From contig JAGLQO010000005.1 of the NCBI GenBank assembly GCA_023136775.1, positions 8,198 to 72,197 on the forward strand: DNA of 64,000 bases, read 5' to 3'. Source of the stretch: Candidatus Pacearchaeota archaeon (GTDB lineage: Archaea > Nanobdellota > Nanobdellia > Pacearchaeales > GW2011-AR1). The notes beneath the pieces were generated by a model. The model searched no databases. It had not been told where the DNA came from and was given only the letters and a program-made list of their open reading frames with translations. How positions within the stretch are numbered: the stretch's first letter is position 1; each line of letters starts with the position of its first letter. Shown piece by piece: positions 32,649 to 50,583 of the stretch. The position numbers were made by a program, and so were the translations under genes.

Positions 32649-33692
32649 ATGACAAGAGAATTAACAATAAAAGATGAAGTGACCGATTTTTTACTTTATA
32701 ATTCACCAGATGGGAAAATTAAAGTAGATGTATTTTTGCACAATGAAGATGTTTGGCTTAATCAGAAGAATATGTCTGAACTTTTTGGAGTGGGTATCCC
32801 CGCAATTTCCAAGCATTTAGAAAATATATATACAGAGCGAGAACTGAATAAGGATTCAACTATTTCCATTTTGGAAATAGTTCAAAGGGAGGGGTTGAGA
32901 GATGTAAGGAGAGAACAGTTATTCTATAATCTTGACGCTATAATCTCAGTGGGATATCGTGTCAATTCTTCAAAGGCAACTCAATTCAGGATATGGTCAA
33001 CCAAGATTTTAAAAGAATATATTATCAAAGGATTTGCTCTTGATGATGAGCGACTAAAAAACGGAAAATATTTCGGCAAAGATTATTTTAAAGAACTTCT
33101 TGAGAGAGTTAGGTCAATTAGGGCAAGCGAAAGAAGGATTTATCAACAGATTACTGATATTTTTGCAGAATGCAGTATTGACTACGATAAGGATTCAAAT
33201 ACAACAAAGGAGTTTTATTCTACAGTTCAGAATAAATTCCATTACGCAATATCGGGACAAACAGCAGCAGAAATAATTTACAACAAAGCGGATTCTAATA
33301 AAAGGAGTATGGGGCTAGTTGCCTAGAAGAATTCCCCGGAAGGCAAAGTATTAAAATCAGATACAATAGTCGCCAAAAATTATCTTTCTGAAAATAAAAT
33401 TAAAAGATTAGAAAGAGTAATTTTTAGCTTCTTTGACTATCTTGAAAATTTAATTGAGAATAGGACAACTATGAAAATGAAAGATCTATCAGAAAGTGTA
33501 AATAAATTTTTAGATTTTAATGAATATAAAATATTGGAAAATAAAGGAGAGATATCCTTTAATGATGCAAAAACAAAAGCCTTCATAGAATATGATTTAT
33601 TTAACAAGACTCAAAAGTTTACTTCTGATTTTGACAAGCTAATAAAAGAACAAAACTTAATTCAATCTTCACACTTAAGAAACGATTAGTCA
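32649..33692 (+). pseudogene. RhuM-family virulence-associated protein interrupted by a single in-frame TAG (33324-33326) at a conserved Trp position
   Basis: The two ORFs 32649-33326 and 33471-33689 are in the same frame with no other stop. Sequence across the stop reads MGLVA*KNSPEGKVLKSD where RhuM homologues have a Trp (recalled). Confidence 0.55.
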
Positions 33693-33939: not shown

Positions 33940-34250
33940 GTTTCTCACCACCCCTTTCCCCGTCATAAAACTATGAACATTCATAATAATATACACAATA
34001 ATATATATCATCATATTCATACTATTTTACACTATAGAATAAATAATAAATTACATCTCTATATCCATAATAAACTTAATAATAAAACTAGCAATAATAT
34101 TAACAATAAATAACATTATAATATCAATAAGTAAATAACTACTAAATTTATTTCTATTCTAAATAATAATCTTAATAATAAAATACTAGTGCCTTATCAA
34201 AAGCAAATTAATAACAAACTTTATAAGTAAACTATTTCTATAATTCTTAT
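33940..34250. repeat. extreme AT-rich low-complexity tract (about 85-90% AT)
   Basis: Seen directly. The ORF 33925-34113 (MFPILVSHHPF...NIHNNIHNN) is a low-complexity artefact. Confidence 0.6.
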
Positions 34251-34434
34251 GAATGTCCATAATAAGAAGATAATTGACCTCATTAAAAAAGAAAGAATAG
34301 TAACATCGTCCGAAGTCGCAGGGCATCTAGGAGTCTCTTGGAACACCGCTGAAAAATATTTATTAGAACTAATTATAGACGGAAAAGTTGAAAGAATTAA
34401 AAAAGTGGGGGTAAACTTATGGCTTCTAAAGTAA
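34249..34434 (+). CDS. small winged-HTH DNA-binding protein
   Basis: 61 aa. VTSSEVAGHLGVSWNTAEKYLLELIIDGKVERIKK. Confidence 0.5.
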   Translation: MNVHNKKIIDLIKKERIVTSSEVAGHLGVSWNTAEKYLLELIIDGKVERIKKVGVNLWLLK

Positions 34435-35111
34435 CAGTAATTCTAATCACTTTGGTTTACATTTTTGCATTCGCATTCTTAGTTAGAGCAGACCCAACGG
34501 GACCAGACAGTATAGTTCGTGGTACAAATGAAACTTGGTCAGGTTCTACTTCTGGAGAAATGGTAAACATATCAGGCGGATACATAGCAAAAATGAACAT
34601 TACATCAACTCAGCAAAATAGTCGTTGGAAAGCTTTCCTCGGAAACGTAGTAGGAAAATTCACACTTAACGACGGCTCAGGCGCAACAATTTACGATTGG
34701 TCTTCAGCTTCAGTTGCTGGTGAAGTCTTGGCATCAAGAAATTCCACATCAATTGATTGGTCCTCTATAGGTTGCGCATCTACTGCGAACATGGAAGCAG
34801 AAAATACAGCCCTAGGTCATTTCGGCTCAGACAATATCACAGCAACATTCAATAAAACTGGAGGAAATTATCAGATTGCTGGACAAGCAGCCAATAATTG
34901 CCCAGCAACAAACCCCTATGTAAATAATAATACTCAAGATACAGCTTTCCAAGAAATTGTTTTGAGCGTCGGAGGTGACATTGTTTATGCAGCAAATATT
35001 AACGCAACAGCAACAGGTTACGACGGGAACACTTACGATTTCCAAATGATAGTGCCAGAAGGAACAGCTGCAGGAAATACTCCATATTACCTTTACGTCG
35101 AACTCGACTAA
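34419..35111 (+). CDS. secreted protein rich in N-glycosylation sequons
   Basis: Signal peptide ...FLVRA|DPT. At least 10 N-x-S/T sequons (NET, NIS, NIT, NST, NIT, NKT, NNT, NAT ...). Confidence 0.5.
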   Translation: MASKVTVILITLVYIFAFAFLVRADPTGPDSIVRGTNETWSGSTSGEMVNISGGYIAKMNITSTQQNSRWKAFLGNVVGKFTLNDGSGATIYDWSSASVAGEVLASRNSTSIDWSSIGCASTANMEAENTALGHFGSDNITATFNKTGGNYQIAGQAANNCPATNPYVNNNTQDTAFQEIVLSVGGDIVYAANINATATGYDGNTYDFQMIVPEGTAAGNTPYYLYVELD

Positions 35112-35202
35112 CTATCACATATCATAATCGCGTGCGTCAGATTGAACAATCCCAACTGTTCAATCTGGCACCCCGATAAATAAATTATTTTATAAAGAAC
35201 AA

Positions 35203-35985
35203 ATGCTAAAAATAATAATGGAAAGAGGGGGAAAGAGAGGACAAGTAACTTTGTTTATAATTTTAGGAATAATATTAGTAGCTGGGATTATAGCAACATC
35301 AGTTCTTTTGTTAAATGTAGAACCAGAAACAAATACCCCAGAAATTCTAGGACCAAGAGCGTTTATAGATAAATGTGTAAGAGATGCAGTAGAAGTCTCA
35401 GTTGAAAAAATAATATTAGGAGGGGGAGAAATAGAACCAAGTTTAACTATAATGCATAATAGTACAAATTATACATATCTTTGTCATCAGCCAGATCTGT
35501 ATAAAACTTGCTACAATCTACATCCAACATTAGAAAGTGATATAGAGAAAGTGATAAAATCAGATACAAATAACGCAGTATCAGAGTGTTTTAATGCTAT
35601 GAGAGAAGATTTTGAAAATAGAGGGTATGATGTCATAGGTAATGACACATATTATTCAATAAGTATTCTATCAGGAGAAATAAAAATCAATTTAGAAAAA
35701 TCAATTACAATATCTAAAGATGATACATCTCAAAATTTTAATAGTTTTAATACAAAAATAATACATCCGTTACATGAAATACTTAGAACAGTTCATAGAA
35801 TTACAACATCAGAATCTCAACATTGCTATTTTGACGCAACAGGGCACATGTTGCTATATCCACAAGAAAAAATTAGAATAATAAATTATCAAAGCAGCAA
35901 GCTTTATAGAATAATAAATCGTAAAACTAATATAGAATTTAAATTTGCAGTAAGAGGATGTGTTCGTCCAGCAGGATTAATTTAA
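35203..35985 (+). CDS. type IV pilin-like protein, class III signal peptide with Gln at +1 (EppA-type), paralogue A
   Basis: MERGGKRG|QVTLFIILGIILVAGIIATSVLLL. Four conserved Cys shared with the paralogue at 39765. Confidence 0.6.
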   Translation: MLKIIMERGGKRGQVTLFIILGIILVAGIIATSVLLLNVEPETNTPEILGPRAFIDKCVRDAVEVSVEKIILGGGEIEPSLTIMHNSTNYTYLCHQPDLYKTCYNLHPTLESDIEKVIKSDTNNAVSECFNAMREDFENRGYDVIGNDTYYSISILSGEIKINLEKSITISKDDTSQNFNSFNTKIIHPLHEILRTVHRITTSESQHCYFDATGHMLLYPQEKIRIINYQSSKLYRIINRKTNIEFKFAVRGCVRPAGLI

Positions 35986-38900
35986 TGGGAGAAAATAAAA
36001 ATAAAAAAATAATAGCAAGTTTTGAATTAACATTAATAATAATGTCAATGTTCGCATTTTCATATATGATTTCAGATTACAATGAATTGTCGATAATTAC
36101 TCCAAAAGAAATATCATTATTAGAAAAAATAAAAATTATTAGCCATATAGGATTAAACAAATTAAAATCACCAATTATTCCAGTTGTATCTGCGCTAGAA
36201 CAAGACGGATGTTGCGAATTGACAATAAAAGGAGAAGAATGTAAGTCATCAGTAGTTGCATCAGACTGCACAGTTCCAATAATAGAGGGAAGGGTATGTA
36301 GTGACGATGATGTTCAAGTTTGTGTAAGAGGTTGTTGTTATGAGGAATCTACAGGAAGATACATCCCAGATAGCCTTCAATCAAGTTGTGTTGATTGGAT
36401 TCCAAATCCTAGTTGTAGTATTCCAGAAGCTAGACTTGGATGCTGTGTAACGGGAGAAAGTGTAATTCCTGATATTACCGAAGCAGCGTGTCAAATAGAA
36501 TCAGAAAATAGAGGATATGATTCAGTAGATTGGAACTTAGGAATGGACGCAGCAAGTTGTACATGGATTGCAGGAGCAACAGATAAGGGAGCATGCGTTT
36601 TTCCTAGTGGAATTTGTTCTTTTGGGGCTAGATCTGAATGTTCGCCAGAAAATGAATTCCGAAAAGATTATTTGTGCACAGCTCCAATTTTAGAAACATC
36701 TTGTAAAATGACAGGCGAAACAACTTGTGTTGAAGGTAGGGATGAAGTGTATTTTATAGATGATTGTGGAAATTTGGCAAACGTATATGATTCTAGTAAA
36801 ATAGATGATGTTGCTTATTGGACTACTGTTCAAGACCCTACTTGCGGAGTAAATTCTCAAGATGGCAATGCGAATTCCAAAGATTGTGGAAATTGTAATT
36901 TAAATACAGGTGGAAGCTGTGCGTCTGCTTTGCAAGATGATTTTAAAGCAGATTCTGGAGATAATTACTGTAGGTCAACAGGATGTTATTTTGATGTTAC
37001 GGGTGAAGGAGAAGAATTTTTAATGACTGGAGAATCTTGGTGTATGTATGACGGAAAAATAGGAGATGGTAAAGATATTCCAGGTTCGTCACATTGGAGA
37101 TATGAATGTGATCAAGGAGAAATAATTTCAATCAGATGCGGGGATCAATATAGAAATAGTATATGCATAGGAGGTTCAGAGGCAGAAATAGATGGAGTTA
37201 ATACTGGCTTTAGAGTTGCTACATGTGCTCCAAATAATTGGGTACAATGTCTAAATGTTAATACCGAAGAAAATATGGAAAATGGAATTGTAGAAGAAGA
37301 ATGTAATAAACTCTTGAATTGTAGAACAGAAAAATTATCTATAAGTGAAAAATATTTTGAATTTGATATATGTGTTCCAGAATATCCAGCAGGGTTTAAT
37401 ACAAAAACACAAATCCAAGAAGTTAATAAAAATTTATGTGGAATAGCAAGTATGACATGTGTAATTCCAAGAGATCCAGAATTCTGGGATGGGTGTGGAT
37501 GGTCAAAAGATGAAGATGATATTAAAATTAATAAAGGATGTACATCTGAAGAATTTACCAAACAAATGAATGATTTCTGCATAGGACTTGGGGACTGTGG
37601 AGCTAACGTAAATATTGTAGGGGTTCGTTCTGATAGCTATGATGTAAGATATACACTTTCTGATATGTCTGATGGAGTAATATCGAGAAGTAAATTGAAA
37701 TCCAATACTGAAAAATTATCTACAAATTATCTACAAAATATTATGTCTATGAACATTCCAACTATACCGCATCAAATAGCAAAAGATGAAGATTATACAA
37801 AAATGTTAGAATCTCTAGGGATGATTGAAATACAAACGGAAGGTATCCCAGATGAGAGACAGGGTGACGACTTTTATGATTTTTCAATGTGGGGTTCAGC
37901 AGGAATAGCAACGGCTATTTATGGTGGAGTAGCATTATTTGGACTAGAAGCTGGCGTATCATTTTCAGCAACTAAAATATTATCTGGATTAGGGCAGTTA
38001 ACAGGAGGTGCGGCATGGCTAGGTCCAGTAATGGGAGCTTTCGCAGGAGTAGCTGCAGGACTATATGTTTCAGAAGCATTAGGAGCTTCAGGTGTTTCAA
38101 CAGTTATAATAACAGGAGGGCTAGCAGCTGCAGGAGCATTAGCAGGAGTAGCAATGACGTCTCTTGCATTTCCAGGGATAGGTTGGGCAATTGCAGGATC
38201 AATAGCATTAGCAGCATTAGGAGCTTCTATAGCAAAATTTATTGAAGACGATTGCGAACCAATAGAAGTTAAATTTGAATGTAAGCCATGGAGACAGCCA
38301 CAAGGAGGAGAAAATTGTGATCAATGCAATAATGACCCATTAAGACCCTGTAATAAATATCGTTGTCATAGTCTGGGGGCAGCATGTGAATTAGAAAATG
38401 TAGGAACAGTTGATGAAAGTTGTATAGCATCTCCAGATGATGGAGCTCCATTATTTATAACGACAGGAGCAACTTCAGACAATGCTATATATTCAGATTT
38501 TGATGATACTCTTGGGAGTAGTTGGGCATCTGCATCAATACCTTCAGGCGGATGTTTTAATGCTTACGAAACAATAGTTTTGGGAATAAATATAAGTAAA
38601 ATAGCATATTGTAGATATGCTACAACAGAAAGTGATTTTGAAGATATGGAAGATTTCGGATCAAATACATATCTAAAACAACAATATCTAACTTTGCATG
38701 TACCAGATCCAAGTAGAGGAATAAGCCAAGGAATAGATTGGTCAGAAGATATAGATTTATTTATTAAATGTGAAGGAGCATATGAAAACATTGAAAACAT
38801 TGGATTTTATAAAATAGATTTATGCATAAATCAAGGTGAAGACATAGGAGCACCTATAATAGAAGCGAAATCTCCTGAAGATGATTCGTTAGTAGGATTT

Positions 38901-39737
38901 GATATAACTCAAAAAAACATTTCCATCTCTACACACGAGCCAGCCACATGTAGATGGAGCTTAGATGATATTACTTATGATGATATGGAAAATAATATGA
39001 GTTGTATTTCGGATATAGCTATAAAGTTTCCAAATACAAATGTTCCAATTCCATATACATGCAAAGCAACTCTCCCAACTCCATTAGCAGAGAACAATTA
39101 TTACATTAATTGCAAAGATCAACCGTGGTTGGAAATATCAAATCCAGACAAGAGAAATTCTAAATTAAGAAATGAACTATATACACTAAAAAGACCAAAT
39201 GAAAAAATAAAAATAAATTATATTAATCCAGAAAATGATATTGAAACGGGAACTCCAAAAAAAGTGTTAGATTTAGAAATAAAAACTTCCTCAGGGGGAT
39301 TAAATCATAAATGTTATTATTCTTTCTTAGATTTTGAAATAATGTATGAAATAATTGATATATCAAGTAATATACATACGGTTCCATTTAATCTTATTCC
39401 AGGCAAAAAGACAATTTATGTAGAATGTCGCGATGAAACAGGAGACACAGTTCAGAGCTCGACAAGTTTTGAAATAATATATGATAATAAAATTCCATTA
39501 ATTGCAAGGGTCTGGCAAGATGCAGGACAACTTCACATTACAACAAATGAAGATTCAGAATGTAAATATTCAACAGAAACCTGTGCATTTGATTGGGAAG
39601 AAGGGAAATTGATGAATGGGAATATTGAACACATAACTTCGGTAACTAAAGGAGAAACTTATTATGTTAAATGTGCGGATGATTTTGACAATGGTAAATC
39701 AAGCAACACATGTTCGATACAAGTGATGGCAGTTTAA
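35985..39737 (+). CDS. giant Cys-rich envelope protein, paralogue 1 (N-terminal signal anchor, ~600-aa Cys-rich ectodomain, ~120-aa Gly/Ala-rich hydrophobic bundle, ~500-aa C-terminal domain)
   Basis: 1250 aa from the ATG overlapping the upstream stop by 1 nt. Roughly 60 Cys. Hydrophobic GSAGIATAIYGGVALFGLEAGVSF...AIAGSIALAALGASIA. C-terminal blocks conserved with 41195. Confidence 0.6.
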   Translation: MGENKNKKIIASFELTLIIMSMFAFSYMISDYNELSIITPKEISLLEKIKIISHIGLNKLKSPIIPVVSALEQDGCCELTIKGEECKSSVVASDCTVPIIEGRVCSDDDVQVCVRGCCYEESTGRYIPDSLQSSCVDWIPNPSCSIPEARLGCCVTGESVIPDITEAACQIESENRGYDSVDWNLGMDAASCTWIAGATDKGACVFPSGICSFGARSECSPENEFRKDYLCTAPILETSCKMTGETTCVEGRDEVYFIDDCGNLANVYDSSKIDDVAYWTTVQDPTCGVNSQDGNANSKDCGNCNLNTGGSCASALQDDFKADSGDNYCRSTGCYFDVTGEGEEFLMTGESWCMYDGKIGDGKDIPGSSHWRYECDQGEIISIRCGDQYRNSICIGGSEAEIDGVNTGFRVATCAPNNWVQCLNVNTEENMENGIVEEECNKLLNCRTEKLSISEKYFEFDICVPEYPAGFNTKTQIQEVNKNLCGIASMTCVIPRDPEFWDGCGWSKDEDDIKINKGCTSEEFTKQMNDFCIGLGDCGANVNIVGVRSDSYDVRYTLSDMSDGVISRSKLKSNTEKLSTNYLQNIMSMNIPTIPHQIAKDEDYTKMLESLGMIEIQTEGIPDERQGDDFYDFSMWGSAGIATAIYGGVALFGLEAGVSFSATKILSGLGQLTGGAAWLGPVMGAFAGVAAGLYVSEALGASGVSTVIITGGLAAAGALAGVAMTSLAFPGIGWAIAGSIALAALGASIAKFIEDDCEPIEVKFECKPWRQPQGGENCDQCNNDPLRPCNKYRCHSLGAACELENVGTVDESCIASPDDGAPLFITTGATSDNAIYSDFDDTLGSSWASASIPSGGCFNAYETIVLGINISKIAYCRYATTESDFEDMEDFGSNTYLKQQYLTLHVPDPSRGISQGIDWSEDIDLFIKCEGAYENIENIGFYKIDLCINQGEDIGAPIIEAKSPEDDSLVGFDITQKNISISTHEPATCRWSLDDITYDDMENNMSCISDIAIKFPNTNVPIPYTCKATLPTPLAENNYYINCKDQPWLEISNPDKRNSKLRNELYTLKRPNEKIKINYINPENDIETGTPKKVLDLEIKTSSGGLNHKCYYSFLDFEIMYEIIDISSNIHTVPFNLIPGKKTIYVECRDETGDTVQSSTSFEIIYDNKIPLIARVWQDAGQLHITTNEDSECKYSTETCAFDWEEGKLMNGNIEHITSVTKGETYYVKCADDFDNGKSSNTCSIQVMAV

Positions 39738-39764
39738 TAATACAACAGAATTTATAAAGATAAG

Positions 39765-40523
39765 ATGGCTATAAAAAATATGAGAGAGGGGAAAAGGGGA
39801 CAAGTTACAATATTTATTATATTAGCAATAATAATAGTAGCGAGCGTTCTAACATTTTTCCTTTACGCAAAACCAACTTTTCTTTCCAAAGAAGGGACAA
39901 GGATAGGTTTTGATGGTTGTGTTCAAGATTCATTAGAACTAGCAATTTACGAATTAGAAAAAAATGGTGGATTTGTAGAGCCAGAATTTTCTTATACGCA
40001 CGAAGGAGAGGAAATATCTTATCTTTGTTATACAAATGAATATTATAAAACATGTACAGTCCAAGTTCCATTCTTATCAAGTCAAATTGACAACCAATTA
40101 GAAATAATAATGAGAGATAAAGTCGACAAATGTTATTCTGATTCAATAGAGGAATTAAAATCTCAAGGTTACGAAGTGACTGCAGGACGAGTTGATTACG
40201 ATGTGCTTTTAGAAACAGGAATTGTAAGAATGGAAATAAAAGCACCAACAGTTGTGGGTTCACAATCTTTCACAAAGTTTGATGTTAAATTAACTAGTCC
40301 AGTATATGACATGGCAATGATGGCAACTTCTCTTTTACAATTCGAAGCAACTTTTGGCGATACTGATTTAAATACAATGTCACAATATTATCCAGAGTAT
40401 AAGATTACAAAAATGAAAATGGGAGATGGAACAACTATTTATTCAATAGAAAGCAAAATTTTTGGCGACAAATTACAGTTTGCTAGTCGAAGCCTAGTTT
40501 TCCCAGCGGGGTATGATTTATAA
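39765..40523 (+). CDS. type IV pilin-like protein, class III signal peptide with Gln at +1, paralogue B
   Basis: MREGKRG|QVTIFIILAIIIVASV. CVQD...LCY...KTC...KCY pattern as in 35203. Confidence 0.6.
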   Translation: MAIKNMREGKRGQVTIFIILAIIIVASVLTFFLYAKPTFLSKEGTRIGFDGCVQDSLELAIYELEKNGGFVEPEFSYTHEGEEISYLCYTNEYYKTCTVQVPFLSSQIDNQLEIIMRDKVDKCYSDSIEELKSQGYEVTAGRVDYDVLLETGIVRMEIKAPTVVGSQSFTKFDVKLTSPVYDMAMMATSLLQFEATFGDTDLNTMSQYYPEYKITKMKMGDGTTIYSIESKIFGDKLQFASRSLVFPAGYDL

Positions 40524-40902
40524 AATGGATAAAGAAAAAACAAATACTAGCTTTATAGAGTGGATGGAAAAAGCAAAACAAGATTTAGACGTATCTAGGG
40601 ATAGTTTGAAATCCAATAATTTAGGTTGGGCAACTTTTCAAATACAACAATCAGCCGAAAAAGCACTTAAGTCGGTTTTAATAAAAAGAGAAAGTAGGTT
40701 GGTTAAAAATCATGATTTGGTTTATTTAGGAAACATGTTAAATTTACCTAAAAATTATCTAGATCATTGTAAAGAAATTAGTCAATTTTATGTGGTAAAT
40801 CGCTATCCAGACATTCCAGAAATAAATTTAACAAAAGAAAGAGTGGAAGAATATCTTTCTTGGGCTAAGGAGGTGCTAGAATGGTGCGAGAAACAGATTT
40901 GA
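40513..40902 (+). CDS. HEPN domain protein
   Basis: QQSAEKALKSVLIKRESRLVKNHDLVYL and a C-terminal NRYPD motif. Confidence 0.6.
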   Translation: MIYKMDKEKTNTSFIEWMEKAKQDLDVSRDSLKSNNLGWATFQIQQSAEKALKSVLIKRESRLVKNHDLVYLGNMLNLPKNYLDHCKEISQFYVVNRYPDIPEINLTKERVEEYLSWAKEVLEWCEKQI

Positions 40903-41198
40903 AGGTAGTCGAAAAATTCAAAGAAAAACTAACAAAAAGATTCCAAAATTCTAAAGTAATTTTATTCGGTTCCAGAGCAACGGGAAATTCCACAGAACAA
41001 AGTGATTTTGATTTAATTGTAGTAAGTGAAGCGTTTGAGGATAAAGATATAATAAAAAGAGGTTCTCTCATGTATGATGATTGGGATTATAATTTTGCAG
41101 TAGATTTTATTTGTTATACTCCCGAGGAATTTAAAGAAAAGGAATCCCGAGTGAGCATAGTTAGTGAAGCATTAAAAACAGGAGTAGTTATAAAATGA
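40881..41198 (+). CDS. minimal nucleotidyltransferase (MNT)
   Basis: LFGSRATGNSTEQSDFDLIVV. Confidence 0.65.
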   Translation: MVRETDLKVVEKFKEKLTKRFQNSKVILFGSRATGNSTEQSDFDLIVVSEAFEDKDIIKRGSLMYDDWDYNFAVDFICYTPEEFKEKESRVSIVSEALKTGVVIK

Positions 41199-44100
41199 GA
41201 TTCAATAAAAAAGGTTCAGCAGTATTACAGTTAACTTTAATGTTATTTTCAATGTTTGCGTTTGCATTCATTATGTCAGATAAGGCAATTGTAACTGCGA
41301 TAACTTCAGAGGCTAGTTATTGTTGTGAAAGAACAAGAGATGGTGCTTCTTGTCAAAATGCTCCAGAATCTGAATGTTCTCCAAGTGCCAAAGCCGCCCC
41401 AACTTCTTGTGAGTCAACCTCATATTGTAAAACAGGGACTTGTTATAATTCCAAAGAAGGACTTTGTATGTCAAATACTCCTCAGGTAACTTGCGAAGCA
41501 GATGGTGACAATACTTGGGATGCTAGACCAATGAATCAAGTTCCACAATGTCAACTAGGATGTTGCATAATTGCAGATCAAGCAGCATTTGTAACATTAA
41601 CAAAATGTAAAAAAATGTCTACAGAATTTGGAGTTGCAAATAATTATAGAAGCGATATTGCCGACGAGTTAAGCTGTATAGCAATGGCTCAATCTCAAGA
41701 TATGGGAGCTTGTGTCTACGAAAGAGATTATGAAAGAGTTTGTGATTTTACGACAAGAAATGAGTGTGGAGCAGCAGACGGAATAGAAACAAGTGAAGGT
41801 GCAGAAATAATTACTTCATCAGAAAAAAAATTCTATAAAGATTTCTTATGTTCAAATGATGATTTAGCGACCACGTGTGCAAGACAGGCAACAACTGAAT
41901 GTTATCAAGGTGATGTTTATTGGGTTGACTCTTGTGGGAATAAAGAAAATGTTTATGCGGGAGACAGTGATGCTGAAAAAGCAGACAGTTGGGCAAATGG
42001 TAAAGTTGCGAGTCCAAGTGTAAATGCAGAAGGTGATTGTAATTATTTAGCGGGAACTCGTTGTGCAGCAAAAGAAGGAATTTTTAATTCGGGGGTAGAA
42101 CACGAATGTAGATTAACAGTATGTAGAGATAGGGATGATAATCCAAGAAAAAATGGTGAATCATGGTGTGTTAGTCCAGGATTAGAGGGGGTTAATGAAT
42201 ATGATTACGATTATAAAAATCCAGGTGAATCCGATTACACAGGTTCAAGTGCAGATAAGGTAGGCTCAAGATATTTTAGAGAAATTTGTATAGATGGAGA
42301 AGTTGTTGTAGAACCATGTTCAGATTATAGAAATGAAATTTGTATACAAGATGAAATTATAACTCAAGATGTTTCGGAAGGTTTTGGAACAGCAGCATGT
42401 AGAGTGAACAGATGGCAAGATTGTGCAGCTCAAGTATGGCAAGATGATTGTGAAAGTGGAGCAAGAGATTGTCAATGGAGAATCCCAGTTAAGGGAATGA
42501 ATGTAGAAGAAAGTGTTCTTGGAAATTATGGAGTTTGTGTCCCAAATTTCCCACCAGGATTAAAATTTTGGGAAGACAGTAGTTCTGAAGAAGTTTGCAA
42601 GCAAGGGAATGTAGAATGTACTGTTGAGTTTGAAAGAGGTATCTTTGATAAAATTGGAGATTGGAAAGGAGGAGAAGGAGCTGGATTTGAAGCTAAGACT
42701 AATGAGGAATGTTTGGAAGAAGATTGGGCATTATCAGCAAATGGAATTTGTGCATCACTCGGTGACTGTGGAGGTTATGTAAATTATAACGAAGATTTAG
42801 GAGCAGGTGGATACAGATGGGTTTCAGCAACAAACGAAGATGGTCCATGGGAATCAGAAGTATTAAAATTTACATCATTAAAAAGTGAAATAAGATCATA
42901 TGTAACAGCGAACGTAGCGACATTAATAACAGGAAGAGCAATCGCAGGACTTGGAACTATAACTGGAATGGTAAGTCTGGGAGAGGCTTACGAACGAGAA
43001 TTATTAACTGCCTCAACATTTATTTATGGAGATCCAGATAGAGAAACATATACAATAGATAATCAAGGCACAGTTAGAAATACAAAAGGAACAAAATTTT
43101 ATCAAAATTCTGCAAATGAATGGGGCTATGGTCCAGCTGATAATTTCATTATATTGGATAAAAATAATCAGAATAAATTTACTCAGGATTATTTTAATAC
43201 TGCACATGCAAAATGGACTGTAGCAAAAAAGAATGTTGATAGTATACCTAAAACAGCACCAGGAACTATTCCAATGGGTGATGGAACAGGTACTGGAACA
43301 AGTGCCATACCAGTTTTGACTGACGCAGCAATGTTAGAACTAGCTAAATATGAATGTAATGTAGATGAATCAAGGGTTTGGAATAAAGCTACTAATACAT
43401 GTGATAGTATTTATAACCCAGAATATTGCAAAGGGATTAATAAGATTTATGTAGAGGGTGGATGTATAGACCCCATGCGATGTGCAGAATGTACATCCCA
43501 AGAATGTAATCCTGCCACAGGTAATTGTGATCTAAAAGATAGTGGAAAAGAATGTGGTTATCTAGATGGAATTGGAGATAATATTGTTACAGCAAAATAT
43601 ACATATTGTACAGATGAAACTAAAACTTGTCATGTAGATAAATGTATTCCAAAAGATGAAGCAAAAAAAATAACGAATGAAACTATAACAGGTCTTCTGG
43701 GGTTTGGAAAAGCTCTAATAATAGGCGGAGGAGCAGCATGGGCATCTTATCAGGGAGCTGCAATGTTTGGAGGAATATTGGGATTTGATGAAGGTGAAAC
43801 AAAAACCTTGCAAGAGTCAGCGGCTATAGCAGCTGGAATATATGCATTCACTACAAAATGGAGTGCAACTTCTAAAACTAAATGGGCATCACCATGGACT
43901 GCAGGAGCAATAGCTGTAGCTTATTTTGCATTGACATATAGAGACACAGAAAGTATAACAGTAGAATTTCAATGTTTACCTTGGGAAGCACCAGATGGAA
44001 CTGATTATGATTGTGAAGTATGTAATGACGACACCCTCCCATGTTCAGAATATAGGTGTAGAAGTTTGGGACTTAATTGCGAGATAGTAAACAAAGGAAC

Positions 44101-45502
44101 TACGGAAGAAAAATGTGTAAATGTAAATCCAAACGATGTGAATCAACCAATAGTAATACCAAGTTATAGTGCATTGGCAGATGATTATTCATATTCAAAT
44201 GTAGTAACGTCACCTCCAAGTCCAGGATTTACAATAACTAACGATGCTAGTGATAATGGATGCATTCCAGCATTTACTCCAGTACAATTTGGGATATATA
44301 CAACAGATGGAGAGGATGGACGAGGAGAACCAGCCCAATGTAAAATAGATTTCGAACATACAACAAGTTATGAAGAAATGAGATCTTATATGGGTTCAAG
44401 TAATCTTTACAAATATAATCACTCAGAATATATCACCCTACCTACAGCAAGAGAGATTGAAAATTCATCACTAAGTATAGAAAATGGAAAAGATCTAACA
44501 TTCTTCATAAGATGTAAAGATAAAACAGGAAACATAAATGAGGCAGAATATTCAGTTAACTTCTGCGTAGATCCAACGCCAGATACGACAGCTCCAAAAA
44601 TAATTGCGACCTCAATTAAAGATGGATCATGTGTCGGAGAAGGTCAAAAGACAGCTCCTGTAAAATTCTATACAGACGAACCATCTTATTGTAAATGGAG
44701 TAATCAAGATCAAGATTATGATAGTATGGCAAATGAGATGGTTTGTTCTAGAAGGGCTGATAATAATTTACTATATCCTTGCAGTGCAGAACTCTCAGGG
44801 ATACCAATGGACGGAGCTGATTTCTACATAAGATGTGAAGATGATGGAGAAACGCATAACAATCCAAGAGGAAGCGAATTTAACAACAAGATGAAAGAAA
44901 GCCTTAAGTTTTCTTTGAGAGGAAGCACTGGACTTCTAATGAGAAATTTGCAACCTAATGGAAGTGAGATAATTTACGGAGCAATAAGCCCAATGCCAGT
45001 AGAACTCTATGCAGAAACATCAATGGGTTGTGACAACGGTTTAGCAACTTGTGCATATTCAGATGAATATTCTGAAACGGGCTCAGGATATATTGATTTC
45101 TTTGATACAAATAATGAAGACGGAATTCATACACAATTATTGAATCTAGAAGAAGATACTCACGAGTATTTCATTCGATGCATCGATGCTGGGGGAAATA
45201 TTATAGAAGATAGTATAGAATTCAAATTAGATATTGACGAAGACGCCCCAATTGTTGCAAGAGTATACGAAGAAGCGGGAATGTTAAAGATAGTAACAGT
45301 GCGAGATAGTGAATGTTCTTATAGTTTCGAAAGTTGTGCTTTCGAGTTTGATGAAGGAACGGTGATGCCATATCCAAATTCAACAATCCACGTAGCAGAA
45401 TGGAGTCCAGATAAAACATTCTTTATAAAATGTAGGGACGAATTTAGAAACGTAGAAGATGGCTGTTCTATAACAGTTCGTCCAACGAAAGATTTCCTTT
45501 GA
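41195..45502 (+). CDS. giant Cys-rich envelope protein, paralogue 2
   Basis: 1435 aa. N-terminal anchor LTLMLFSMFAFAFIMSD similar to paralogue 1. Internal hydrophobic ITGLLGFGKALIIGGGAAWASYQGAAMFGGILGF...AGAIAVAYFALTY. Conserved C-terminal blocks CLPWEAPDG...CNDDTLPCSEYRCRSLGLNCE and ...ARVYEEAGMLKIV...SECSYSFESCAFEFDEG. Confidence 0.6.
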   Translation: MRFNKKGSAVLQLTLMLFSMFAFAFIMSDKAIVTAITSEASYCCERTRDGASCQNAPESECSPSAKAAPTSCESTSYCKTGTCYNSKEGLCMSNTPQVTCEADGDNTWDARPMNQVPQCQLGCCIIADQAAFVTLTKCKKMSTEFGVANNYRSDIADELSCIAMAQSQDMGACVYERDYERVCDFTTRNECGAADGIETSEGAEIITSSEKKFYKDFLCSNDDLATTCARQATTECYQGDVYWVDSCGNKENVYAGDSDAEKADSWANGKVASPSVNAEGDCNYLAGTRCAAKEGIFNSGVEHECRLTVCRDRDDNPRKNGESWCVSPGLEGVNEYDYDYKNPGESDYTGSSADKVGSRYFREICIDGEVVVEPCSDYRNEICIQDEIITQDVSEGFGTAACRVNRWQDCAAQVWQDDCESGARDCQWRIPVKGMNVEESVLGNYGVCVPNFPPGLKFWEDSSSEEVCKQGNVECTVEFERGIFDKIGDWKGGEGAGFEAKTNEECLEEDWALSANGICASLGDCGGYVNYNEDLGAGGYRWVSATNEDGPWESEVLKFTSLKSEIRSYVTANVATLITGRAIAGLGTITGMVSLGEAYERELLTASTFIYGDPDRETYTIDNQGTVRNTKGTKFYQNSANEWGYGPADNFIILDKNNQNKFTQDYFNTAHAKWTVAKKNVDSIPKTAPGTIPMGDGTGTGTSAIPVLTDAAMLELAKYECNVDESRVWNKATNTCDSIYNPEYCKGINKIYVEGGCIDPMRCAECTSQECNPATGNCDLKDSGKECGYLDGIGDNIVTAKYTYCTDETKTCHVDKCIPKDEAKKITNETITGLLGFGKALIIGGGAAWASYQGAAMFGGILGFDEGETKTLQESAAIAAGIYAFTTKWSATSKTKWASPWTAGAIAVAYFALTYRDTESITVEFQCLPWEAPDGTDYDCEVCNDDTLPCSEYRCRSLGLNCEIVNKGTTEEKCVNVNPNDVNQPIVIPSYSALADDYSYSNVVTSPPSPGFTITNDASDNGCIPAFTPVQFGIYTTDGEDGRGEPAQCKIDFEHTTSYEEMRSYMGSSNLYKYNHSEYITLPTAREIENSSLSIENGKDLTFFIRCKDKTGNINEAEYSVNFCVDPTPDTTAPKIIATSIKDGSCVGEGQKTAPVKFYTDEPSYCKWSNQDQDYDSMANEMVCSRRADNNLLYPCSAELSGIPMDGADFYIRCEDDGETHNNPRGSEFNNKMKESLKFSLRGSTGLLMRNLQPNGSEIIYGAISPMPVELYAETSMGCDNGLATCAYSDEYSETGSGYIDFFDTNNEDGIHTQLLNLEEDTHEYFIRCIDAGGNIIEDSIEFKLDIDEDAPIVARVYEEAGMLKIVTVRDSECSYSFESCAFEFDEGTVMPYPNSTIHVAEWSPDKTFFIKCRDEFRNVEDGCSITVRPTKDFL

Positions 45503-45506
45503 TAAA

Positions 45507-45797
45507 ATGAATAAGAAAATGATAATCAATGAAATTGAAAAAAGACGTGAAAAACTAAAAGATAAAGGTGTTAAAAAAATTGGATTATTCGGATCATATT
45601 TGAAAGGAACGCAGAAAAAAGGAAGTGATATAGATTTTTTAGTTACTTTTGAAAAAGAAAATTTAGGGAAGAATTATTTTAAAGTCTTGTTTTATTTAGA
45701 AAATCTATTTAAGAGGAAAATTGATTTAGTTGCAGTTCAGTCATTAAGACCAGAATTAAATTATGTAAAAAAGGAAGCTGTATATGCCAAAATATGA
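45507..45797 (+). CDS. nucleotidyltransferase antitoxin-like (MntA-type)
   Basis: GLFGSYLKGTQKKGSDIDFLV. Confidence 0.6.
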   Translation: MNKKMIINEIEKRREKLKDKGVKKIGLFGSYLKGTQKKGSDIDFLVTFEKENLGKNYFKVLFYLENLFKRKIDLVAVQSLRPELNYVKKEAVYAKI

Positions 45798-46104
45798 TTT
45801 AAATTTAAATTTAATCAAGGAAATGATTGAAAGAATTGAAGTAGATTTAAATAAATCTCTAGAAGATAAAACTGTTTGGGATGCCACTCTTATGAGGTTT
45901 CAAGTTATGGGAGAAAATATTGACAAACTACCAAGAGAAGTTCTTAAAAAACATAATGAAATAAATTGGAGAAAATATTACGCTTTTAGAAATTCAATAA
46001 GTCACACTTATAATGATATTCTAATAGAAGTTATTGCCGATTTAATTAGCGAATTACCAGTTTTAAAAAGAGCAATTGTAAAAATTAAGAGAGAGATAAA
46101 ATGA
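45784..46104 (+). CDS. HepT/DUF86-like HEPN toxin
   Basis: FRNSISHTY (R-x4-6-H HEPN motif). Overlaps the upstream NTase gene. Confidence 0.55.
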   Translation: MPKYDLNLNLIKEMIERIEVDLNKSLEDKTVWDATLMRFQVMGENIDKLPREVLKKHNEINWRKYYAFRNSISHTYNDILIEVIADLISELPVLKRAIVKIKREIK

Positions 46105-46162
46105 AATATAAAAAAGCACAGCAAACAAGAGGTTTAATAATAATTAAGACGGAGTATATACT

Positions 46163-46540
46163 ATGAAAATAGAAATCTCAGATTGGATAAAGCAAGCACA
46201 AGTAGATTTAGGTACGGCAAGATATAATCTCCAAGGAAAAATTTATTACGCAAGTGCTTTTTTTTCACAACAATCGGTAGAAAAAGCTCTAAAAGCATAT
46301 TATATTCAGGAAAAAAATACTATAAAGAAAACTCATAGTGTGAGCTCTCTAGCTAAAGAACTTAAGCTTCCAAAAGAACTTTTATCTAAAATAATAGAAC
46401 TTGAAGAAATACATAGAACTGCAAGATATCCAGGCATAAGTCAAAAAATTCCCTCAGAAGAAATAGAGGAAGAAGATGCTATAAATTTTTGTAATATTGC
46501 ACAGGAGGTCTTAAAATGGATAGAAATCAAAGTGAAGTAA
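46163..46540 (+). CDS. HEPN domain protein
   Basis: QQSVEKALKAYYIQ...KTHSVSSL...HRTARYPG. Confidence 0.6.
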   Translation: MKIEISDWIKQAQVDLGTARYNLQGKIYYASAFFSQQSVEKALKAYYIQEKNTIKKTHSVSSLAKELKLPKELLSKIIELEEIHRTARYPGISQKIPSEEIEEEDAINFCNIAQEVLKWIEIKVK

Positions 46541-46836
46541 TAAAGTTAATTAAAAACTTTAAAAATAAAATAAAAAATATTAAATTAGATAAAGTAATAT
46601 TATTTGGTTCATACTCAAAAGGGACACAAAAAAGAGGAAGCGATATTGATTTATTAGTTATTTCAAATGATTTTGAAAATATTAAATCATTCAAACGAGC
46701 AAACGATTTATATCTAAATTGGGATATAGACATAGACATAGATTTTATTTGCCTAACAAATGAAGAATTAAGAATTAAGAAAAATCAAATTGGCATAGTT
46801 AGTGAAGCACTAAAAACAGGAGTGGTTATAAAATGA
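46516..46836 (+). CDS. minimal nucleotidyltransferase (MNT)
   Basis: LFGSYSKGTQKRGSDIDLLVIS. C-terminal SEALKTGVVIK identical to the MNT at 40881. Confidence 0.65.
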   Translation: MDRNQSEVIKLIKNFKNKIKNIKLDKVILFGSYSKGTQKRGSDIDLLVISNDFENIKSFKRANDLYLNWDIDIDIDFICLTNEELRIKKNQIGIVSEALKTGVVIK

Positions 46837-47324
46837 AATATAAAAAAGCACAACAAACAATGAGTATGCCATTTGGTATGATATTCGCAATTTTTCTAAT
46901 TATAGTTTTTGTAGTTTTTGCATTTATGGCGGTCGGTGGATTTTTAGATATTGGGAAAAGTGCAGATGTTGGAATGTTCTATGACGAATTACAAGAAGAA
47001 GTAAATGACGCTATGCGTGGACAATCAAGTGAATCCACTTTTAGAATAAATTTACCAAAAAAGATTAAGCAAGTTTGTTTTGCTAATCTGTCAGCAACAA
47101 TTACAAACCCAGGTTCAGAGTACGATGCAATTAGAAATTATGAAGTTTATGAAGCCAATACATTTTTGCTTCCACCAGAATTTGCGTCAAATATGCAATG
47201 GAAAATGATTGACCATATTGATGTAGCAAAAATAACAGCTACAAAAAATCCCTATTGTGTAAATGTCAAAGACGACCTAAAAATAAAGAAGAGTTTTTAT
47301 GATAGAAAAGTTACAATAGCATAG
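46833..47324 (+). CDS. type IV pilin-like protein (class III signal, KKA|QQ)
   Basis: MKYKKA|QQTMSMPFGMIFAIFLIIVFVVFAF. Confidence 0.5.
   Translation: MKYKKAQQTMSMPFGMIFAIFLIIVFVVFAFMAVGGFLDIGKSADVGMFYDELQEEVNDAMRGQSSESTFRINLPKKIKQVCFANLSATITNPGSEYDAIRNYEVYEANTFLLPPEFASNMQWKMIDHIDVAKITATKNPYCVNVKDDLKIKKSFYDRKVTIA
47216..47324 (+). repeat. direct repeat copy 1 (3' end of pilin gene 46833-47324)
   Basis: About 90% identical to 47981-48090. Confidence 0.7.
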
Positions 47325-47361
47325 GAGATTAATTTTTATAAATTAGGAAGGGAACAATTTT

Positions 47362-47502
47362 GCTCTCAGGACTTCTAGAGATTGTTTGGATTAAGACAGG
47401 GGCAGGAAATTGAGATATAAAAAGACAATTAACATGAATATTAGATATTATAATTAAGCATATTTGCATTGAATCTTCTAAATCTATTAAAGTCCTGAGA
47501 GC
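47362..47502. mobile_element. MITE-like element bounded by 12-bp inverted repeats gctctcaggact / agtcctgagagc
   Basis: IRs at 47362-47373 and 47491-47502. The same 12-mer recurs at 56397 and as agtcctgag at 33847, both at other insertion junctions. Confidence 0.35.
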
Positions 47503-47556
47503 TGTTTGTCTTGAGGAATTAGTTAATTATTTAAATTCCAATTTATTAAATAATAT

Positions 47557-47757
47557 ATGGATTTTAATATAATAATTGAAAAAGGAGAAGATGGGTATTT
47601 ATTATCTGAAGTAATTGAGCTTCCTGGTTGTAGAACTCAAGCTAAAGATATGAATGAACTTCTTAAAAGAACAAAAGAGGTTATTACTCTTTATTTGCAA
47701 GTAGAGGAAATGTCAACAAGAAACAGTTTTTTAGGAGTACAAAAAATAGCAGTTTAA
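47557..47757 (+). CDS. hicB: HicB-family antitoxin
   Basis: EDGYLLSEVIELPGCRTQAKDMNELLKRTKEVI. Confidence 0.65.
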   Translation: MDFNIIIEKGEDGYLLSEVIELPGCRTQAKDMNELLKRTKEVITLYLQVEEMSTRNSFLGVQKIAV

Positions 47758-47758
47758 T

Positions 47759-47986
47759 ATGCAAAAATTACCTCAGTTAACTGCCAATCAATTTATCAAA
47801 ATTTTATTTAAATTAGGTTTCAAAGCTATAAGGCAATCTGGAAGTCATGTATTCTTAAGGCATGAAGATGGTAGAACGACAGTAATCCCAAATCATCCTG
47901 GAGAGAAATTGGATAGGGGACTATTAAATAAAATATTAAAAAAGGATGTACAAATTTCTAGAGATGAACTTTTAGAATTAATTTAG
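47759..47986 (+). CDS. hicA: HicA-family mRNA interferase toxin
   Basis: GFKAIRQSGSHVFLRHEDGRTTVIPNHPGEKLDRGLL. Confidence 0.65.
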   Translation: MQKLPQLTANQFIKILFKLGFKAIRQSGSHVFLRHEDGRTTVIPNHPGEKLDRGLLNKILKKDVQISRDELLELI

Positions 47987-48090
47987 ATATAGCAAAAATA
48001 ACAGCTACAAAAAATCCCTATTGTGTAAATGTTAAAGACGACCTAAAAATAAAGAAGGGTTTTCATAATAGAAAAGTTACAATAGAATAA
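47981..48090 (+). repeat. direct repeat copy 2 (orphan duplicate of the pilin gene 3' end, including a stop)
   Basis: atttagatatagcaaaaataacagctacaaaaaatccctattgtgtaaatgttaaagacgacctaaaaataaagaag... Confidence 0.7.
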
Positions 48091-48135
48091 TATAAGAAAT
48101 TTAACCGCTTCCTTTAAAAAAACTATTTACATTAT

Positions 48136-49098: not shown

Positions 49099-49595
49099 AA
49101 AAAGCACAAATGCAGATTCAACAAATGTCATTTATGTTAATAGCAGTGTTTATATTCTTCGCATTAGTCGGGATGTTTTTTCTAAGAGTTCAAGTTGGAG
49201 GAATAAAGGGGAGTGCCGCACAATTACAAAAAGAACAAGCGATTTCTTCATTGCAAGTTATAGCAGATATGCCAGAATTGAACTTTGACTGCAAAGAATC
49301 CATGACATTAGATAAAGATAAATTACTAATAATGTCAGGAGATTTTGGACAAGATTATGATTTATTTTGGCCGGTAGCCTCAGTTGAAGTTTTCAAAGCA
49401 TATCCAGCATTTGACTCCCAAATAGAATGCCCAGCTCCGAATTGTAATTATTACAATGTCTATAATAACAGCCAATTAAATAGCAAGAAATTCGCGACAT
49501 TCGTATCAATATGTAGCAAGGAACGAGAATCTGGTTCAGTTTACACCAGATGTAACATAGGTAAATTAGTGGTAGGAATAATAAACAATGAATAA
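49092..49595 (+). CDS. type IV pilin-like protein (class III signal, KKA|QM)
   Basis: MVKKA|QMQIQQMSFMLIAVFIFFALVGMF. Confidence 0.5.
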   Translation: MVKKAQMQIQQMSFMLIAVFIFFALVGMFFLRVQVGGIKGSAAQLQKEQAISSLQVIADMPELNFDCKESMTLDKDKLLIMSGDFGQDYDLFWPVASVEVFKAYPAFDSQIECPAPNCNYYNVYNNSQLNSKKFATFVSICSKERESGSVYTRCNIGKLVVGIINNE

Positions 49596-50468: not shown

Positions 50469-50583
50469 TAGCTCACGGATTTATAGCCGTATTATCATTA
50501 ATTTATATAATTGCTTTGGAAAGTTTGGTTATTTTTTTAGCTCACGGATCCACACGGATGTCTTCGACATTCACGGATTTTTT
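50469..50583 (-). repeat. R2 modules, inverse orientation (ttagctcacggatccacacggatgtcttcgacattcacggattt)
   Basis: Reverse complement is aaatccgtgaa-tgtcgaagaca-tccgtgtggatccgtgagctaa. Confidence 0.6.

Follow-up and report, generated by a model that had tools for sequence, protein, structure and literature searches.

A conserved gene cluster for pilin-like and giant cysteine-rich proteins in Pacearchaeota and Woesearchaeota

Candidatus Pacearchaeota archaeon carries, on a 64,000-nucleotide stretch of contig JAGLQO010000005.1 (assembly GCA_023136775.1, positions 8,198 to 72,197 of the forward strand; hereafter the window), two pairs of genes which each encode a pilin-like protein of about 250 amino acids (PL1 and PL2) followed by a giant cysteine-rich protein (giant 1 and giant 2). 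These pairs are the core of a larger, unannotated and lineage-specific envelope gene cluster of Pacearchaeota and Woesearchaeota, which belong to the DPANN archaea. The cluster is composed of a winged-helix gene (wHTH), one, two or three pairs of PL and giant, four further pilin-like proteins of 163, 320, 167 and 164 amino acids (s163, s320, s167 and s164), a regulator of the HVO_A0114 type and an S-layer gene. As for its role, we consider the chances about even that it encodes a pilin-related surface attachment complex, built from proteins with class III (prepilin) N-termini.

Gene content and conservation

The window is archaeal DNA of about 33% G+C, with a ribosomal protein operon and genes for SecY, primase, PCNA and AglB. 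Giant 1 is identical to an NCBI protein from 'Candidatus Pacearchaeota archaeon' (locus tag KAS08_01775), and the same sequence is also present on contig DAOWHN010000006.1 of assembly GCA_030641395.1. An earlier note, made by a model from the sequence of the window and its open reading frames, had described the region as a tandemly duplicated two-gene module. The paralogy on which that description was built is real and far past chance: PL1 and PL2 share 28% identity over 252 amino acids (E=2e-30), and the giants align in two segments, at 30% over 619 amino acids (E=2e-58) and at 26% over 705 (E=4e-43). The motifs quoted for the two families were all found, most of them being family-invariant, namely KRGQVT(L/I)FII and the four-Cys frame in the pilin-like proteins, and LTL..SMFAF, CVP(E/N)(Y/F)P, GDCG..VN, C.PW and the C-terminal ARV(W/Y)../DSEC block in the giants. 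The duplication itself is not a local feature of the window. The best matches elsewhere of PL1 and giant 1 differ from those of PL2 and giant 2, each copy having a separate orthologue in other genomes; the duplication is therefore older than the divergence of these genomes, and a recent tandem event was rejected. As regards its limits, the pairs lie where the note had placed them, but the module extends further, from about 34249 to 50441, with the addition of the S-layer gene at 51895-54288.

Relatives were recovered by scanning GTDB species-representative genomes with the PL alignment, which returned at least 331; the best 80 of these are all metagenome-assembled genomes (MAGs) of Woesearchaeota, Pacearchaeota or Nanoarchaeota, or MAGs labelled as unclassified archaea. 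Synteny was mapped with the window proteins over 82 loci from different species-level genomes, each order being limited by the reach of its contig. The recurrent order, first met around three distant giant homologues, is x440(-), x614(-), primase(-), PCNA(+), [wHTH], PL, giant, PL, giant, s163, s320, s167, s164, HVO_A0114(-), S-layer, and the chromosomal position beside PCNA and primase is constant across the 82 loci (at least 80 species-representative genomes). A PL gene has a giant behind it in all cases (140/140), and no giant comes without a PL gene of its own ahead of it; the median gap is -1 nucleotide, i.e. stop and start codons usually overlap.

In the window, the TAA of PL1 and the ATG of giant 1 share one base (TAATG), and giant 1 is separated from PL2 by 27 nucleotides, which is the '28-nt junction' that had been attributed to a pair. 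PL2 and giant 2 stand 671 nucleotides apart, and the gap is occupied by a HEPN/MNT gene pair; thus, the tight coupling claimed for both pairs stands, in this genome, for the first alone. Given the median gap in the relatives, this HEPN/MNT pair (40513-41198) is an insertion and lies outside the module.

Eight co-directional genes of the window (two PLs, two giants and the four smaller proteins) encode exported proteins, each with a hydrophobic helix behind a short basic N-terminus. Export is predicted for all the non-regulatory proteins of the cluster, which occupies about 12-14 kb in very small genomes. Many related loci have the gene of the 61-amino-acid winged-helix protein in the corresponding position, and the orthologues of the S-layer-like gene give clear S_layer_C matches. 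A homologue of the accessory secreted protein p230 occurs at its position in only three of the 82 loci (L004, L008 and L030).

The statement that the proteins belong to no described family was borne out. Searches of Pfam, NCBIfam and PHROGs gave no significant match for any of the eight exported proteins, Protein Data Bank (PDB) profile searches with alignments of the giants, of the 250-amino-acid family and of s320 gave nothing significant, and no description of the cluster was found in literature searches. Weak matches to CoV_NSP4_N, TBP-TOTE, DEX1 and phrog_35557 fell below cut-off and were discarded.

The most conserved protein of the cluster is s320, with 55-67% identity over 120 listed homologues, 727 hits overall and 60 invariant columns in 28 sequences. 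Its homologues form 812 clusters at 50% identity; among the 150 listed, most are stand-alone proteins of about 300-345 amino acids and some are shorter and partial. It gave no match in the PDB profile search, and it may be the structural core of an assembled structure. One homologue (P0329, HNV12_03520) is labelled Methanococcoides sp. SA1, while the other named hits are DPANN, and its contig is probably mis-binned.

N-terminal junctions and architecture of the giants

The N-terminus of the PL family was examined in 244 sequences, and percentages were computed on the 231 of them which have a Q-x-x-x-F core. The residue before the would-be cleavage site (position -1, left of the arrow in the sequences given here) is Gly in 78%, Ala in 17% and Ser in 5%, position -2 is Lys or Arg in 93%, and a median of 8 residues lies ahead of the predicted site. 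By its sequence, the PL N-terminus has the layout of a class III signal with Gln at +1, and its conservation goes far beyond what a mere signal anchor would call for. Euryarchaeal pilins of the EppA type characteristically have Gln at +1. In PL1 this N-terminus (KRG↓QVTLFIIL) is followed by a helix, a floppy linker and an alpha/beta ectodomain with four invariant Cys.

The same type of junction recurs along the cluster. A small residue followed by Gln is present at the would-be cleavage site of six of the eight exported window proteins, neither giant having that Gln. In all relatives seen, s163, s320, s167 and s164 feature a [KR][GAS]↓(Q/F/Y) junction before the hydrophobic helix; in s320 position +1 is Gln in the window and Phe, Tyr or Glu in relatives. 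The basic-small-Gln form is thus common to PL1, PL2 and three of the four other small families. The ectodomains of the four downstream proteins are mutually unrelated (hhalign probabilities of 2% at most), and among the five small families the only profile-profile relation is that between PL1 and PL2. Unrelated ectodomains would hardly share so strict a junction if it did not serve for processing or recognition, which favours a biogenesis dependent on class III signals.

The N-terminus of the giants has the consensus (K/R)K-x-(I/V)A(S/G)FE(L/V)xLM..S.FAFSY. In the 67 of 120 homologues chosen by a pattern which itself demands Glu or Gln at the helix start, this residue is Glu in 62 and Gln in 5, and the would-be -1 residue is Ile or Val in 41 and Gly or Ala in 14. 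The corresponding junctions in the window are KKI↓IASFEL for giant 1 and KKG↓SAVLQL for giant 2, and some members of the family read KRA↓QASLELILI, which reaches 19.4 bits against the Pfam Class_IIIsignal model.

Giant 1 was modelled with AlphaFold over residues 51-1250 from 97 aligned sequences, with a mean predicted local distance difference test score (pLDDT) of 80. The model is composed of a Cys-rich N domain (residues ~75-560) with pLDDT of about 90, a variable linker and an all-beta C region, also modelled with confidence. In the family alignment 43 columns are invariant, mostly Cys (about 40), and the commonest Cys count of the homologues is 64. In the last third of the giants, immunoglobulin (Ig)/FN3-like sandwiches follow one another, as in adhesins, and the listed structure matches are mostly Ig/FN3-type beta-sandwich domains, with no beta-propeller among them. 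No match was found for the disulfide-rich domain of about 480 amino acids, and the cluster thus features confidently modelled domains without a PDB match. The motif C[KRY][YW][SA] occurs in giant 1 at residues 876, 989, 1110 and 1193, with a (Y/F)(D/E)(D/E)M-type stretch after the first two; despite this fourfold motif, BLAST self-comparison of the N and C regions detected no internal repeats.

A Gly/Ala-rich hydrophobic segment, which the earlier note had described in both giants as a bundle, is clear in giant 1, where residues 636-755 comprise 23% Ala and 19% Gly, with many small-xxx-small repeats and Kyte-Doolittle values of up to 1.83. The corresponding segment of giant 2 (residues ~816-925) is weakly hydrophobic and amphipathic, no 19-residue stretch reaching 1.4. 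Across the family, the last 130 residues before C.PW have a median Kyte-Doolittle maximum of 2.48 and mostly four or five hydrophobic stretches; a few short forms have no such segment. By column-averaged hydrophobicity, giant 1 would have three or four helices here, but a helical bundle was not borne out, since the pLDDT of the model is about 30 at residues ~610-755. Gly-zipper profiles (Pfam Gly-zipper_* and Rick_17kDa_Anti) matched neither the window giants nor seven homologues, one of which is named 'glycine zipper family protein' by NCBI. From their sequences, the giants look like multi-pass membrane proteins and not like subunits which can be extracted from the membrane, and for this reason they would stay in it. 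As the N-terminus would lie inside and the two Cys-rich parts outside, the Gly-rich segment should make an even number of crossings, or none.

The two forms in which giant 2 occurs help to delimit its parts. In most relatives (L013, L016, L020, L027, L060 and others) it is split over two genes, whereas it is a single gene here and in a few relatives. The first half (G2N) has about 500-610 amino acids, 41-45 Cys and an ordinary Sec signal peptide, and ends after the GDCG block. The second (G2C), of about 690-850 amino acids and 21-24 Cys, starts with a pilin-like helix, and a single hydrophobic stretch usually leads up to C.PW; in these split forms the segment lies only some 60-100 residues past the N-terminal anchor. 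Residues ~104-702 of G2C align to residues 832-1435 of giant 2 with 44-54% identity, and in two of the five split pairs compared the N-terminal helix of G2C aligns to residues 3-35 of giant 2. From these alignments, the fused giant has the architecture of G2C, with the Cys-rich domain inserted in the external loop that joins the first helix to the Gly-rich segment; the split in most relatives makes this domain a separable secreted module. The first helix would then belong functionally with the Gly-rich segment and the Ig region. As far as can be read from the alignments, the one- and two-gene forms are a natural gene fusion or fission which defines the domain boundaries.

N-glycosylation sequons are depleted in both giants, with 3 in giant 1 against 10.5±2.9 in shuffled sequences and 5 in giant 2 against 12.4±3.1; counts as low as these occur in about 0.6% of shuffles. 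In contrast, p230 has 8 sequons (3.5 per 100 amino acids). The AglB oligosaccharyltransferase is encoded in the window at 2098-4743. No S-layer domain was matched in the giants by Pfam, and their 64 and 74 Cys and few sequons are unlike the usual Cys-poor, glycosylated S-layer proteins.

Function and relation to known systems

Few uncultured archaea are as widespread as Pacearchaeota and Woesearchaeota, which are thought to be attached to other cells, but no attachment or exchange structure has so far been tied to genes in them. The cluster is a concrete candidate by reason of its conserved place, its cost of 12-14 kb, the predicted export of its products and the confidently modelled domains unmatched in the PDB. 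The surface attachment complex to which we give even chances would work as follows. A class III signal peptidase encoded elsewhere would trim the small and 250-amino-acid proteins after Gly or Ala, and the trimmed N-terminal helices would assemble into a short pilus-like or pseudopilus-like stalk, or into a membrane-embedded bundle. The giants would be held in the membrane by their N-terminal helix and an even number of glycine-zipper helices, each being docked to the stalk by its dedicated 250-amino-acid partner, and would extend through or alongside the S-layer to bind a host cell or a substrate. This reading agrees with the Ig-like stalk, with the strong disulfide bonding, and with giants which vary in copy number and diverge faster. 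Moreover, the divergence of the giants (about 38% identity) relative to s320 (about 60%) would fit exposed, target-binding giants and a core structural role of s320.

The earlier note had argued for a surface appendage or tip-adhesin system. The conserved class III N-termini, the Ig/FN3-like C-terminal third and the likeness to minor-pilin/large-adhesin operons speak for that view, as do the four downstream proteins with N-termini of this kind, which the note had not connected with the pairs. The operon setting is as for PilY1-type adhesins, with six pilin-like genes that run on the strand of the giants and keep their order here and in relatives. What does not carry over is the comparison of the giants themselves with PilY1, as they showed neither its beta-propeller nor DUF2341 (no Pfam match at E<=1, no NCBIfam match), and their multi-pass look and the lack of pilus machinery nearby sit badly with the appendage view.

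Several observations weigh against the attachment complex. The Class_IIIsignal family of Pfam (PF04021, QxSxExxxL), whose curated cut-off is 23.7 bits, scored below it for every protein tested: PL1 reached 9.1 bits (E=1.8) and the N-terminus of one giant homologue (P0072, residues 8-23) 19.4 bits (E=0.001), the remaining window proteins tested giving no match. Most giant-1-type proteins have Ile or Val at the would-be -1 position, and the prepilin peptidases described are not known to take either residue there. Some members of the giant family, including short ones, bear plain Sec signal peptides and no pilin-like helix, and the mid-chain hydrophobic segment would hinder the extraction of the giants into a filament. 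Furthermore, Pfam found no pilus ATPase, platform protein or prepilin peptidase among the open reading frames of the 64-kb window, none was seen in about 17 kb more of the contig on two extensions, and none lies within 10 kb in the 82 related loci. The latter were searched with a Walker-A screen and a screen for multi-pass membrane proteins, followed by Pfam on seven candidates, which were rejected as transporters, an M50 peptidase and a glycosyltransferase. Lastly, type IV pilus components are reported as missing from DPANN genomes (preprint 10.1101/2020.05.14.094862); FlaI/J/K have been annotated in Woesearchaeota genomes (PMC8407392), and the literature on type IV filament machinery in these lineages is contradictory. 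The strict prepilin-type junction across unrelated families bears on this disputed use of type IV filaments.

The closest known systems are the type IV pilus loci of Methanococcales ('clade 1' of Makarova et al. 2016, PMC4858521; 'system 1' or Epd pilus, 10.64898/2026.04.22.720090). In Methanococci, loci with five or more minor pilins, two large adhesins and S-layer-like genes have been described, and archaea frequently encode their pilins in a locus other than that of the ATPase (PMC4858521). The cluster resembles them in its several small proteins with class III signals, its two large predicted adhesins, the S-layer-like gene nearby and a pilin locus which may lie apart from that of the ATPase. 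It differs in that its giants have no DUF2341 or PilY-like domain and each carries a mid-chain Gly/Ala-rich segment, 64-74 Cys and a dedicated 250-amino-acid partner; no component matches a pilin family, and no ATPase or platform genes are seen by the cluster. Gln at +1, as in EppA-type substrates, is a further point of likeness.

Bacterial systems offer looser parallels. In the FimU-PilVWXE-PilY1 and GspH-K sets, small pilin-like genes are co-transcribed with that of a very large surface protein, presumed to bind at the tip. The cluster shares with them a run of about four small pilin-like genes beside a very large surface protein and, in the s320 relatives, the G↓F/Y junction of bacterial prepilins; unlike them, it has no beta-propeller, its giants have their own membrane anchors and the envelope is an archaeal one with an S-layer. 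Modular type IV pilins with bulky C-terminal modules, such as PilB and PilC of Streptococcus sanguinis, likewise join large adhesive domains to a pilin-type helix with a Glu near its start. The giants, however, are 5-10 times larger, mostly have no Gly or Ala at -1, and carry extra hydrophobic segments which speak against incorporation in a filament. The kind of system, i.e. a pilin-like set with large adhesins by an S-layer gene, is therefore already known in archaea. What is new is that all the protein families are unannotated and that the architecture of the giants (pilin-like helix, inserted 42-Cys domain, glycine-zipper segment, Cys knot and Ig sandwiches) has no described counterpart.

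The main alternative, possible though unlikely, is that the proteins form a housekeeping scaffold of the envelope, in which uncleaved signal anchors build a membrane complex which organises or anchors the S-layer and the sub-S-layer space, the giants being its struts. A precedent exists in FlaF and FlaG of the archaellum, whose pilin-like N-terminal helices stay in the membrane as uncleaved anchors while the ectodomain touches the S-layer; the cluster is similar in its pilin-like helices, which on this reading would stay in the membrane, and in its adjacent S-layer gene, and differs in having no archaellum genes, no sequence relation to these proteins and a strict -1/+1 junction which suggests processing. 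A scaffold would suit the fixed core-genome position by PCNA, primase and the S-layer gene in the 82 loci, the occurrence of at least 331 relatives among GTDB species representatives, the strong conservation of s320, the multi-pass look of the giants and the lack of pilus machinery around these loci, to which the reported lack of type IV pilus components in DPANN (10.1101/2020.05.14.094862) can be added. A plain anchor nevertheless leaves unexplained that Gly, Ala or Ser stands at -1 in 100% of the PL sequences with the core (231/244), as well as the basic-small-Gln junction across unrelated families, and the faster divergence of the giants and their one to three pairs per locus are more typical of proteins which interact outwards.

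The earlier note had also named a host-membrane-interacting apparatus, which is speculative. It is improbable that the Gly/Ala-rich segment is a device aimed at the membrane of a host, i.e. a fusion-peptide-like or pore-forming element for which the pilin-like proteins act as piston or stalk, and whose cytoplasmic bridges or pores would yield metabolites to these reduced archaea. Its richness in Ala and Gly and its small-xxx-small periodicity resemble glycine zippers and viral fusion peptides. It is placed between two large ectodomains of a 1250-residue chain, which is itself a difference from those peptides, as is the absence of a Pfam Gly-zipper match; no similarity of the giants to class I-III fusogens, fusexins or type III secretion system (T3SS) translocators was found. 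That AlphaFold cannot place the segment (pLDDT ~30) and that it is amphipathic and not strongly hydrophobic in giant 2 would agree with a membrane-inserting role, and bridges to the host, as well as unidentified envelope complexes, occur in other DPANN (PMC11329633). On the other hand, in most members the segment is as strongly hydrophobic as ordinary transmembrane helices (median maximum 2.48, four or five stretches), and its position shortly after the anchor in the split forms suggests a joint membrane bundle. A marginal match of positions 528-708 of the giant family profile, i.e. the linker and the Gly-rich segment, to the T3SS translocator AopB (3wxx_B, E=0.51) points the same way as this reading; it is not significant and probably compositional. 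We give similarly little weight to the fuller proposal of a host-contact machine, in which a class III pseudopilus would carry or drive the giants, the Gly/Ala-rich segments would open a pore or bridge in the host and the Cys-rich domain would serve as recognition head. If true, this would be a new apparatus of cell-to-cell interaction, and would give a first molecular entry point to the way in which the largest uncultured lineages of DPANN live off their hosts.

DNA-uptake and secretion machines have pseudopilin sets such as ComGC-GG and GspG-K, and the run of four small pilin-like genes resembles such minor-pseudopilin operons. A competence- or secretion-type pseudopilus, with the four small and the 250-amino-acid proteins as pseudopilins and the giants as secreted or displayed cargo, is nonetheless very improbable: there is no ATPase, platform, DNA-binding or channel component in or near the cluster in the window and the 82 loci, and no component has a sequence or profile relation to known pseudopilins. 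Nucleotide scavenging, which PMC8204110 proposes for these archaea, would agree with DNA uptake. Finally, the HEPN/MNT, HicAB, RhuM and Bro-N genes interleaved with the cluster, with toxin-antitoxin-like pairs and RhuM fragments lying between its genes, could hint that a mobile element or defence island carries it as cargo. This reading deserves next to no credence and was rejected on the synteny: the cluster holds one core-genome position in the 82 genomes, and the inserted pairs are mostly absent there. Moreover, PHROG matches are not meaningful and no integrase or tRNA is present.

The cluster offers defined targets for metaproteomics, for labelling with antibodies or in cryo-electron tomography, and for heterologous cleavage assays.

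Inserted modules and neighbouring genes

The HEPN/MNT pairs which the earlier note saw interleaved with the module are confirmed by Pfam. Together with the other inserted toxin-antitoxin-like or selfish modules they sit in intergenic gaps, and no cluster gene is disrupted by them. These modules are mostly absent from the corresponding positions in relatives, and the window copy of the cluster is unusual in these interruptions alone. In one distant relative (L002), an MNT and HepT pair lies likewise between a PL gene and its giant. The coordinates of all features are collected in Table 1.

Table 1. Features of the cluster, of the giants and of the inserted modules, in window coordinates (aa, amino acids; the arrow marks the would-be cleavage site)
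Feature	Position	Strand	Basis
Two RhuM fragments and PDDEXK_3 nuclease	32649-33689, 50542-50973
Small winged-helix protein, 61 aa, opens the cluster, candidate regulator	34249-34434	+	Pfam HTH_24, HTH_DeoR, FaeA
p230, accessory secreted protein, Sec-type signal peptide	34419-35111	+	Open reading frame, no Pfam match
PL1, pilin-like 1, 260 aa	35203-35985	+	Intact open reading frame
Giant 1, 1250 aa from MGENK (start as in NCBI), 64 Cys	35985-39737	+	Intact open reading frame
Giant 1 N-terminal helix, aa 9-31, IASFELTLIIMSMFAFSY, conserved Glu	36009-36077	+	Glu/Gln in the 67 of 120 homologues selected by a pattern which demands it
Giant 1 Cys-rich N domain, aa 75-560, 42 Cys, mostly beta	36207-37664	+
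Giant 1 Gly/Ala-rich hydrophobic segment, aa 636-755	37890-38249	+	Composition, hydrophobicity
Giant 1 C region, Cys knot (C.PW...C..CN.D...PC..YRC.SLG..CE), then about four beta-sandwich domains	38250-39734	+
PL2, pilin-like 2, 252 aa, PL1 paralogue	39765-40523	+	Intact open reading frame
HEPN (40513-40902) and MNT nucleotidyltransferase (40881-41198), between PL2 and giant 2	40513-41198	+	Pfam
Giant 2, 1435 aa, 74 Cys, single fused gene here	41195-45502	+	Intact open reading frame
Giant 2 Cys-rich N domain, aa 43-542, equivalent of G2N	41321-42820	+	G2N aligns to aa ~11-542, 47-49% identity
Giant 2 variable insert, aa 543-831, including a small extra Cys-rich piece, aa 721-817	42821-43687	+	In neither split half
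Giant 2 Gly/Ala-rich segment (aa ~832-925), Cys knot and Ig-like region, equivalent of G2C	43688-45499	+	Alignment to G2C
MNT and HepT, inserted pair	45507-46104	+	Pfam
HEPN and MNT, inserted pair	46163-46836	+	Pfam
s163, small pilin-like, KKA↓QQTMSMPFGMIFAIFLII	46833-47324	+	Synteny; [KR][GA]↓Q and hydrophobic helix across relatives
HicB and HicA, inserted pair	47557-47986
s320, pilin-like N-terminus KKG↓QFNFAWLFAIL, 10 Cys	48136-49098	+	Synteny, conservation
s167, small pilin-like, KKA↓QMQIQQMSFMLIAV	49092-49595	+	Synteny, N-terminus
s164, small pilin-like, KKA↓QQEIVGFVLIVV	49588-50082	+	Synteny, N-terminus
HVO_A0114-type winged-helix protein, convergent with the cluster, candidate regulator	50079-50441	-	Pfam PF25212, E=1.2e-17; same place in relatives
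S-layer-like protein, 797 aa, no Cys, conserved downstream neighbour	51895-54288	+	Weak S_layer_C match; synteny

On the upstream side, two secreted proteins of 614 (9754-11598) and 440 amino acids (11653-12975), with no Pfam match, adjoin primase; their genes recur beyond primase and PCNA in most related loci, and could encode further envelope components.

The stretch downstream of the S-layer gene looks variable and possibly defence-related. It encodes a Schlafen/AlbA_2-HATPase_c_4 protein (54672-55973, minus strand), an AAA_14/DUF4143 ATPase (56615-57907) and two proteins with a Bro-N domain (58132-58893, and 61693-62535 on the minus strand). A membrane protein of 179 amino acids (61142-61681, minus strand) has a weak exosortase/EpsH-like match (E=5e-4), and the window ends within the gene of a 635-amino-acid Ig-like surface protein (ASH, HYDIN-like, Bact_surface_Ig-like), whose start is encoded at 63014-63787 on the minus strand.

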